A stretch of 42,251 nt of DNA, taken from sequence record PV340560.1. One strand, given 5' to 3'. The translations under genes and the position numbers were made by a program. Under the pieces are notes generated by a model that was given only the letters and a program-made list of their open reading frames with translations, searched no databases and was not told the DNA's origin. How positions within the stretch are numbered: the first letter of the stretch is position 1; each line of letters begins with the position of its first letter. This stretch comes from Escherichia phage PhiR40_1. Below are positions 13,742 through 14,896 of this stretch, in pieces.

Positions 13742-13783
13742 AAGACCTCTTATTGAGGGGGTAATTGAATCAGTTTAATGTGT

Positions 13784-13815
13784 GGGGAGTCGATTTATTC
13801 TCCCCATTTTATTTA
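13784..13815 (+). terminator. Candidate terminator after Q (GGGGAG-loop-CTCCCC + T-rich)
   Basis: 6-bp stem, 10-nt loop, ATTTTATTT tail. Confidence 0.35.
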
Positions 13816-13825
13816 ATTAATTTAC

Positions 13826-14272
13826 TTAAGGTTTTAATTCATCAAGACGTTGTTGGATAGTGTTTTTGCTTGCGTTGTCTGTTATAGCCATTTGTTGTAC
13901 TTGCCCCATTGCCATTTGAGTTTCCATCCACATATCGGCCCACACTTTTGTATCGTTATTAACTTGAGCGATAGTAAATCTGACTTTTGATACCGGGGTT
14001 GTTGAATAGGCATTGCCGATTAACATTTGTCCAAAAACAGCAGACCCGCCTTCCAGTTCTTTACCACATATAACACTGCTGTTATCAGCGTTGTAAATTA
14101 TCAACCCTCTACTATTGCAGTAATTCACAAGGGCATCTTTGACTTTATCTTTTGTCGTATTTTGATAAACCCCCTCAGGTTTTCCTGATTGAGTTTTTTT
14201 TATCAATGGTACGGAAGAAGTACAACCTGAAATGATAGTTGCGCTAAGTAATAGTACAGTCATTTTATTCAT
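13826..14272 (-). CDS. Lipoprotein moron (signal peptide with lipobox ISGC)
   Basis: 148 aa; MNKMTVLLLSATIISGC; antisense to late transcription; AT-rich by eye. Confidence 0.6.
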   Translation of the reverse strand: MNKMTVLLLSATIISGCTSSVPLIKKTQSGKPEGVYQNTTKDKVKDALVNYCNSRGLIIYNADNSSVICGKELEGGSAVFGQMLIGNAYSTTPVSKVRFTIAQVNNDTKVWADMWMETQMAMGQVQQMAITDNASKNTIQQRLDELKP

Positions 14273-14316
14273 GTTTCTTATCCATTGTTAAGGGCATACC
14301 TACACAATTATTTTTA

Positions 14317-14345
14317 TTGGAGATGAATAATCAACCGTTTACAAT
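14317..14345 (+). promoter_or_regulatory. Candidate late promoter (TTGGAG-N17-TACAAT)
   Basis: Hexamers read directly; terminator ~50 nt downstream, consistent with a short pR'-type transcript. Confidence 0.25.
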
Positions 14346-14395
14346 CGTAAAAAATCAAATATGCTGTTAAGAGTGGTTACTTCGCCACACAACTT

Positions 14396-14423
14396 AAACC
14401 CGCCGCTGAGCGGTTTTTTTGTA
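14396..14423 (+). terminator. Intrinsic terminator (GC hairpin + T7), candidate tR'
   Basis: CCGCCGCTGAGCGG followed by TTTTTTT. Confidence 0.5.
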
Positions 14424-14542
14424 CCTGTAAACTTGGTGCAGTACAGTAAACACGCTGGTGGTCGTGAATACTGACCTTTTATCTTGCTGGCTTTTTAGAC
14501 AAGAGTTATTGGTATGTCATGTTAACCAGAAGGGAAAAAGAC

Positions 14543-14746
14543 ATGCTAAAACAGCAAGATATGACAGAAACCGCCGCCGCAGTCCTTCATTTCTTACCTG
14601 CTGACAAGTGGGTAACGCCACGCATGATGACGAGAACTACCGGAGTAAGCGAAGCCCGGTGCCAGTTAATACTGACTCAGTTAGTTCTGGCGGGTCTGGC
14701 GAAGGATAACGGCGGGTACGGGAATAAATTCAGACGCTGCCAGTAA
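14543..14746 (+). CDS. Small hypothetical protein
   Basis: ATG 14543 with SD AAGGGA; upstream in-frame ATG at 14519. Confidence 0.3.
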   Translation: MLKQQDMTETAAAVLHFLPADKWVTPRMMTRTTGVSEARCQLILTQLVLAGLAKDNGGYGNKFRRCQ

Positions 14747-14896
14747 TGGCGGTTTCCTGCTGTGAAAATGGGCGGCTGGTGGGTGTTGGTAGCACCTGCC
14801 AGCCATTCGCTCATGCCTACTGGTCACAAGCGAACCACGGCCCACTGCTTTAGCGCAAAAGCAGAGTGAGCCTACCAGAGTTACGCTTACTGATCC

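Follow-up and report, generated by a model that had tools for sequence, protein, structure and literature searches.

A Q21-family late-control cassette split by a lipoprotein moron in Escherichia phage PhiR40_1

The lipoproteins Cor (phages phi80, N15 and T1) and Llp (phage T5) are encoded by genes that adjoin those for receptor binding, and Llp has a second role in sparing progeny, by blocking the receptor on debris and on cells that lyse. In phage PA-2, the porin Lc replaces OmpC, the receptor of PA-2, which is itself a form of exclusion, and stx sits in the classic conversion slot downstream of pR'/tR'. For antiterminators of the Q21 family, to which Pfam family PF06530 corresponds, the late-control cassette has been defined as a Q gene, the late promoter pR', a sigma-dependent pause element and a terminator, and the Q21 binding element has been described as two tandem direct repeats beside this pause element (PMC9388147). 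Q control of the lysis operon of prophage DLP12 has been reported as well, according to the citation of Rueggeberg 2013 in PMC7918800. We analysed the interval between the Q gene and the late genes in a sequence of 42,251 nucleotides (hereafter the window) from Escherichia phage PhiR40_1 (PV340560.1), where a lipoprotein gene lies on the strand opposite to Q. We show that a late-control cassette of the Q21 family is split here by a moron, and we define the boundaries of the split, a conserved promoter-terminator unit and the link of this unit to the subtype of Q. The lipoprotein gene, one of an uncharacterised family, is an ordinary moron whose slot is well defined; on balance, we favour the reading of the interval as such a split cassette whose lipoprotein most likely acts in the envelope, where it would exclude superinfecting phages.

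A late-control cassette split by cargo

We compared the interval with the Q21-type cassette. Firstly, the Q protein is of the PF06530 type (Table 1), RefSeq names it antiterminator Q family protein, and phmmer returns a distant match to the Q21 structures 6p18/6jnx (E=7.5e-9), although it is shorter than the Q21 chain (121 against 162 amino acids, aa). Its gene ends where a first-pass annotation, made from the sequence letters, had placed the end, with a stop codon at 13741 (annotated start, 13376). Secondly, a promoter (TTTACA-16-TATGCT) is followed within ~50 nt by an intrinsic terminator (a hairpin and T7 ending at 14420), ahead of the late genes, as in the Q21-type cassette. The short promoter-to-terminator unit of the pR'/tR' kind that had been proposed before the late genes is thus present, though it starts from a corrected promoter (see below). 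Thirdly, and unlike in the Q21-type cassette, Q does not stand directly before its own promoter: 596 bp separate the Q stop codon at 13741 from the -35 hexamer of pR' at 14338, and cargo holds Q and promoter 0.5-3 kb apart in every related locus sampled.

The limits of the inserted segment emerged from a comparison with a related locus (L121) that combines a 91%-identical Q with a different lipoprotein. Homology ends with the stop codon of Q and sets in again at the GTTTAC of pR', which makes these two points the boundaries of an exchangeable cassette (13742 to about 14335). The GC fraction is 0.34-0.40 across 13600-14500 and about 0.46-0.58 on the flanks, in agreement with the AT-richness of the lipoprotein gene that had been judged by eye. 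Two properties expected of a moron are found, namely a base composition unlike that of the flanks and replacement among similar phages with sharp boundaries (by another lipoprotein, a porin, a CPBP protein or defence genes), and the earlier view of this AT-rich, antisense gene as a moron holds, other cargo taking its place behind the same or a similar Q.

Occupancy of the slot was assessed in 115 loci retrieved by the promoter element alone, 107 of which include the upstream region. The gap, measured from the end of Q to the search pattern of the element, 25 bp inside pR', spans 525-3022 bp in 107/107 loci and is never empty. It holds an antisense NmpC/Lc porin gene in 75 of them, a sense CPBP protease-like gene in 6, the present lipoprotein gene, again antisense, in 5 and a gene for a small secreted protein in 1, besides ~20 other cassettes that are mostly antisense. 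PADLOC matches among these other cassettes are PDC-S20 (E=2e-176), PDC-S42 (2e-51) and NsnA/PD-T4-2_A (4e-45); another holds an OLD/HEC-04-like ATPase (also a PADLOC match) adjoining a C5 cytosine methylase, and further ones gave no PADLOC match. The Q-to-pR' slot looks like a hotspot for cargo and defence genes between two conserved anchors, and a QuuD-type Q gene and its conserved promoter, used as such anchors, would give a precise way to mine the cargo of E. coli prophages, including defence and unknown genes. It is not the classic lysogenic-conversion slot, as had been supposed: the cargo lies between Q and the promoter on which Q acts, in the nmpC/lc slot, and not after pR', where stx is found.

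The nmpC/lc porin moron (DLP12 qsr', phage PA-2) occupies the identical slot in the same antisense orientation, from a QuuD-type Q to the same pR'/tR' element, and its product is an outer-membrane protein, the location predicted for the PhiR40_1 lipoprotein. It encodes, however, a beta-barrel porin of 355 aa without sequence relation to the 148-aa lipoprotein, and its hairpin is oriented so as to terminate the porin gene, whereas the hairpin in PhiR40_1 has its T-tail on the Q strand. This last hairpin had been noted as a terminator right after Q (13784-13815). A terminator-like hairpin is indeed present (13782-13807), with a T-rich tail on the plus strand only, the minus-strand tail being ACACAUUA; yet loci with other cargo do not share it, every one of them having a different hairpin there. 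Since what follows Q bears no sequence relation from one cargo type to another, the hairpin belongs to the cargo cassette and not to the Q module.

Several loci add to the picture of the slot. Other cassettes were seen in L104, L135, L141, L142, L150, L176, L184, L204 and L207, and one of these is a homologue of the NA37 nucleoid-associated protein. The predicted lipoprotein of L121, which is 159 aa long (MKKIALTLLSTLIITGC...), is encoded on the minus strand ~100-580 bp upstream of the pR' element; it represents a second lipoprotein cargo of the slot and has no Pfam or PADLOC match. In L034 (IMG/VR 2778261122_000001), an extra gene on the Q strand (4675-5937) lies between Q and the lipoprotein gene and encodes a protein of 420 aa, equally without Pfam or PADLOC match; hence, the slot can hold two cargo genes.

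We then examined the right-hand anchor. Positions 14337-14396 match a 60-bp element, comprising pR' and the transcript start, that occurs at ~85% identity in ~3,190 E. coli records. In K-12 it lies in DLP12, between the antisense nmpC and essD, and in an O157:H7 prophage and in strain PEC422 it follows the Q gene and one sense-strand cargo gene. Alignment of the element revealed that TTTACR-16 nt-TATGCT is kept, followed by a conserved segment, GTTAAGAGTGGTTACTTCGCCACA, and then by the terminator. Phage vB_EcoM-720R4, whose Q of 250 aa is unrelated, is without this promoter part, and the shared sequence begins there only at the terminator. The first-pass annotation had placed the late promoter ~20 bp further to the left, at 14317-14345, with a -35 hexamer TTGGAG/TGGAGA at ~14317 and a -10 hexamer TACAAT at 14340-14345, which would make the transcript ~20 nt longer. 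That candidate matches the consensus at 9/12 positions and TACAAT is a good -10 hexamer, but the position of TACAAT reads TACGTA or TACGAT in K-12, O157 and PEC422, where the region of the upstream hexamer is unrelated cargo sequence; the related loci have not kept its hexamers, whereas all QuuD-type loci have TTTACR-16-TATGCT. We consider a late start from the earlier candidate very improbable.

The link between promoter and Q was established by scanning IMG/VR with the core of the element and analysing 173 loci that contain it; these loci are related, so that the counts are not numbers of independent events. Three Q subtypes with ~50% mutual identity are found among these loci, and each has its own motif in the -35/spacer region with zero exceptions: TTTACRWWCGTAAAA goes with the QuuD-like subtype ...NNHEDVTW, that of PhiR40_1 (124/124 loci), CGCGGTCCGCA with subtype ...SGVDY (11/11) and YGCGTACGCAAA with subtype ...SGVDW (8/8). 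As the motif matches the Q subtype despite differing cargo within each subtype, the association has outlived recombination, which argues for functional coupling. That a motif close to the promoter covaries with the subtype of Q is a further likeness to the Q21-type cassette, and this covariation suggests that Q probably binds at the -35/spacer motif. The motifs that track the subtype are all palindromic, as seen at 14340-14349 and at the equivalent positions in L093, L095, L141 and L104 (TACGTACGTA, TACGATCGTA, GCGTACGC and GCGGTCCGC).

Downstream of the promoter, BLAST found four QuuD-type loci among which the segment 14366-14395 is conserved; the pattern that retrieved the later loci was taken from this segment, and its near-identity across the three Q subtypes is thus partly by construction. 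No clear -10-like pause element was seen within it. A 37-aa open reading frame (ORF) on the plus strand (14361-14474), extending across the -10 hexamer of pR', the short transcript and the terminator, is annotated in GenBank record PV340571 without a RefSeq call, and is probably a spurious gene call. The second terminator of the first-pass annotation (14396-14423) was recovered at 14396-14420 by both scan and fold, with the sequence AAACCCGC-N6-GCGG followed by T7, and the same hairpin or a replacement stands in related loci. The usual form in relatives is AAACCCGC-N6-GCGGGTTTT, with a stronger CCCGC...GCGGG stem. Hairpins of unrelated sequence, each with a T-run, take its place in at least three loci, which supports terminator function at this position, and the terminator is also common to phages with other Q modules. 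With the weak hairpin at 14460-14485, it would form a tandem of terminators downstream of pR' that would tighten Q dependence.

The lipoprotein and its family

The 148-aa lipoprotein gene with lipobox ISGC that had been read on the opposite strand was confirmed at 13826-14272. The N-terminus of its product (MNKMTVLLLSATIISGC) has a Lys in the n-region and a signal peptide ending in the lipobox (MNKMTVLLLSATIISG followed by the Cys, that is, ISG before C). The Cys predicted to be lipidated is kept without exception in 21 close homologues and almost without exception in 25 remote ones. Thr occupies position +2 here, and homologues have Ala, Thr or Val there but never Asp, which predicts sorting of the lipoprotein to the outer membrane.

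We searched for homologues and for structural relatives, and the gene proved to be conserved without leading to a named family. The protein matches phrog_3152 (E=1e-104), a family of unknown function, and has 31 close homologues in Enterobacterales (50-100% identity), in which Cys17 and Cys69 are invariant and the motifs SGKPEG, GNAYST and KVWADMWxETQM are conserved. In nearly all of ~50 full-length loci of the E. coli type, the lipoprotein is 97-100% identical, and Q is 99-100% identical to that of PhiR40_1. A profile search over 1.84 billion representatives returned 823 clusters at E<0.001, 408 of them at E<1e-10. Cys52, Cys69 and Gly123 are invariant in 25 remote members, and the conserved pair Cys52 and Cys69 fits a periplasmic domain stabilised by a disulfide. 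Some relatives carry C-terminal PDZ, BON, TPR/YfiO or SHOCT domains, all of which are associated with the envelope. The AlphaFold2 (AF2) model (pLDDT 85) resembles the outer-membrane lipoproteins Flpp3 (DUF3568) and BamC in their helix-grip domains, although sequence identity to these is 6-9%; the helix-grip fold is common to many unrelated proteins (KA1, SRPBCC), and hence we draw no functional conclusion from it.

Naming the family from annotation was not possible. Scans of Pfam, NCBIfam and PADLOC gave nothing significant and PHROGs only phrog_3152; for none of the members is there a curated name, nor a Pfam or NCBIfam model; all the remote relatives reached by the profile search are called 'hypothetical'; and a literature search found no paper on this lipoprotein. 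The automatic labels 'LpoB' and 'VirB7' occur once each and nothing else supports them. Rz-like spanins were also set aside, as the PHROG matches to them (E 0.02-0.04) cover at most the first 45 residues, that is, the region of the signal peptide and lipobox. Nor is the protein like Bor, as had been stated in the first reading: BLASTP against the Bor of DLP12 gave E=0.10 over 42 residues, and there is no Pfam match. The two share a setting, Bor (lambda)/Iss being likewise a prophage lipoprotein moron in the region of Q and lysis genes that is transcribed against the late operon, and Bor is expressed in lysogens. However, Bor is a protein of 97 aa with an unrelated sequence, and its gene lies downstream of Rz and not between Q and pR'.

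The position of the homologues is more telling. At 31/38 divergent loci, the homologue lies inside the tail-tip cluster of a siphovirus, on the same strand and beside host-recognition genes; these tail-embedded copies come from Morganella, Proteus, Photorhabdus, Haemophilus and many IMG/VR contigs, a few contigs being in both collections. The junction used varies, being that of the tape-measure gene H and M, that of M and L, or that of K and I just before J, and insertion at different junctions is the behaviour of a moron. In being encoded beside tail or receptor-binding genes, most divergent homologues resemble Cor and Llp, which are also small phage-encoded outer-membrane lipoproteins, the location predicted for the PhiR40_1 protein. 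Unlike these, the PhiR40_1 lipoprotein is ~twice the size, and no sequence similarity to them is detectable (no PHROG or Pfam match).

Proposed mechanism and role of the lipoprotein

We propose that, without Q, RNA polymerase would start near 14372, make an RNA of ~50 nt and stop at 14414-14420, and that polymerase which had taken up Q at the pause close to the promoter would continue past the terminator into the genes for the winged-helix protein, the methylase and lysis. The lipoprotein gene would be driven by TTGATT-16-AATAAT (14334-14307), the -35 hexamer of which lies 3 bp from that of pR', so that the two promoters are back to back; its candidate Shine-Dalgarno sequence is GGA at 14283-14281. 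Another promoter-like site on the minus strand (14291-14262, 10/12) was rejected because its -10 hexamer falls beyond the start codon, inside the gene. On the plus strand, the hairpin behind Q would limit antisense read-in and protect the lipoprotein gene from transcription that passes through Q; the annotation of Escherichia phage PhiR55_1 (PV340571), which is identical in this region, has no N-like antiterminator. Such a layout would suit expression from the prophage independently of the lytic programme.

By analogy with Cor and Llp, we tentatively propose that the lipoprotein, made in the lysogen, blocks a receptor or entry step of incoming phages; it would do so by masking or altering an outer-membrane receptor or an entry step, the mechanism of exclusion of Cor and Llp, and a further effect may be to prevent the adsorption of progeny to debris. 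If this is true, a new family would join the few known exclusion lipoproteins acting at the envelope, and it would point to the receptor of the carrier phages, with a bearing on host range and on phage therapy against E. coli and its relatives. Somewhat less probable still is the wider proposal that the lipoprotein is the founding member of a widespread and unrecognised family of phage-borne outer-membrane lipoproteins that block a receptor or entry step (at least 823 clusters at 50% identity), a third family of the Cor/Llp kind, captured repeatedly beside tail-tip host-recognition genes and, in E. coli, in the Q-to-pR' slot.

Several observations weigh against the reading of the interval as a split Q21-type cassette with an exclusion lipoprotein. 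On the side of late control, the motif linked to Q is a palindrome (TACGTACGTA in K-12, TACAATCGTA in PhiR40_1), unlike the tandem direct repeats described for the Q21 site, so that it is the covariation, and not the form of the site, that argues for Q binding; and the terminator stem is weaker here than in most relatives (GCGGT, four G-C pairs), with z=-1.6 for the fold of the whole transcript. On the side of the lipoprotein, its promoter matches the consensus at only 9/12 positions, and 3' of the gene there is no canonical intrinsic terminator on its strand, the hairpin there being without a U-tail on that strand. The protein has no similarity to annotated exclusion or defence families in PADLOC, PHROGs, Pfam or NCBIfam, and a place in the slot does not imply defence, since the slot also holds a porin and unknown genes. 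Finally, homologues in Halomonas and Sphingosinicella are without flanking tail genes, and the family may thus not be purely a phage device.

The copies outside tail clusters are also what would be expected if the lipoprotein served host fitness or virulence, through serum resistance, as for Bor, through stress tolerance or through envelope homeostasis, and this alternative gains from the PDZ, BON and TPR fusions, typical of envelope housekeeping, from the resemblance of the fold to Flpp3 and BamC, from the prophage slot that also carries a porin and from the listed carrier genomes, which are mostly human isolates. It nevertheless leaves the strong tendency of the homologues toward tail-tip and host-recognition genes unexplained, and the protein is not similar to Bor/Iss (BLASTP; no Pfam match); we rate it as unlikely. 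The co-orientation of most divergent homologues within the late tail operon, together with the weak PHROG matches to Rz-like spanins, might instead suggest a mainly lytic role, in which the lipoprotein, made together with the virion genes, would block receptors on lysing cells and debris, or would assist lysis, and its expression in the lysogen would be incidental. This we regard as improbable: the spanin matches are confined to the first 45 residues, the phage already has an Rz gene of its own, and a gene upstream of pR' that runs against both early and late transcription cannot belong to the late operon. Least probable is that the gene is a neutral passenger or silent in this phage, as the weak promoter and ribosome-binding site might suggest, for the ORF is intact and 97-100% identical in nearly all of the E. 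coli-type loci, the lipobox, two cysteines and several motifs are kept across genera at 50-70% identity, and the family has 823 clusters.

Neighbouring genes and other features

The coordinates of the features are given in Table 1.

Table 1. Features of the Q-to-lysis region of PhiR40_1 (positions of the window; TSS, transcription start site)
Feature	Position	Strand	Remarks
DUF968 gene	12363-13358		upstream of Q in the local gene order
Q antiterminator gene, 121 aa	13376-13741	+	Pfam PF06530, E=2e-51; second in the local gene order
Exchangeable cargo cassette (hairpin, lipoprotein gene, promoter region)	13742-14335		from the L121 comparison; GC 0.34-0.40
Hairpin after Q	13782-13822	+	stem 13782-13789/13800-13807; dG -13 kcal/mol, z=-3.1
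Lipoprotein gene, 148 aa	13826-14272	-	signal peptide 1-16; predicted lipidated Cys17; Thr at +2
Candidate lipoprotein promoter	14307-14334	-	TTGATT (14334-14329)-16-AATAAT (14312-14307); 9/12 scan match; TSS about 14300
Late promoter pR'	14338-14365	+	-35 TTTACA 14338-14343, 16 nt, -10 TATGCT 14360-14365; conserved
Q-subtype motif TACAATCGTA	14340-14349	+	in the -35/spacer of pR'; probable Q-binding element
Late transcript start	14366-14395	+	TSS about 14372; small hairpin 14373-14377/14384-14388; presumed position of the pause element
tR'-like intrinsic terminator	14396-14420	+	AAA-C-CCGC CGCUGA GCGG-U-UUU, seven T; scan and fold
Weak second terminator-like hairpin	14460-14485	+	TTTTATCTT tail; fold z=-1.2; conserved in loci carrying the small ORF
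Stand-alone winged-helix protein, 67 aa	14543-14746	+	first gene after tR'; phrog_331, E=3e-26
DNA methyltransferase, beta-class N6/N4	14897-15949	+	late gene; PF01555, E=2e-42, annotations, PDB relatives
Holin gene essD	16017		after the methyltransferase; lysis genes next

An ORF of 67-75 aa starting at 14519 or 14543 and ending at 14746 had been listed within the interval. The ORF exists, and its conserved form is the one of 67 aa starting at 14543: all homologues begin MLKQQDMTE, an AAGGG Shine-Dalgarno sequence lies 8 nt upstream, and RefSeq gives the same start. It is not cargo, for phages whose Q modules differ have it after tR', usually before a methylase, and its place after a shared terminator makes it the first late gene. 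It has 150 homologues, of which those at ~50% identity are named TrmB family regulators, and its AF2 model (pLDDT 87) has an H-H-H-beta-beta topology with TM-scores of 0.75-0.82 to the Z-alpha and IclR N-terminal winged-helix domains. The methyltransferase downstream is a beta-class protein of 350 aa with DPPY near the N-terminus and FxGxG near the C-terminus. Compared by size and motifs alone, it has about the size and the same motif order as M.EcoGII, a non-specific adenine methylase of 349 aa that is borne by a prophage and silent in lysogens (PMC5778455).

Within 13300-15000, the sole Rfam match is to STnc130, which was taken as chance (24 bits, with a gathering score of 55). In the scanned region, terminator-like sites are enriched (7, with 1.7 +/- 1.4 expected), and promoter-like sites number 7 (3.5 +/- 1.7 expected). 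The same 13300-15000 segment is 100% identical to PhiR55_1, one of the ECOR-derived temperate phages used by the Laub laboratory, a set reportedly described by Brenes and Laub in 2025. The C-terminal 300 residues of J (35960-36859, plus strand), in contrast, are 99.7% identical to PhiR49_2 and below 99% to all other phage records; PhiR40_1 is thus a mosaic relative of PhiR55_1 and not the same genome throughout. The phages best matching the J C-terminus give no receptor, and we draw no conclusion from them on this point. Prophages in 162/5,426 complete E. coli genomes hold at least 80% of the 13300-15000 segment.

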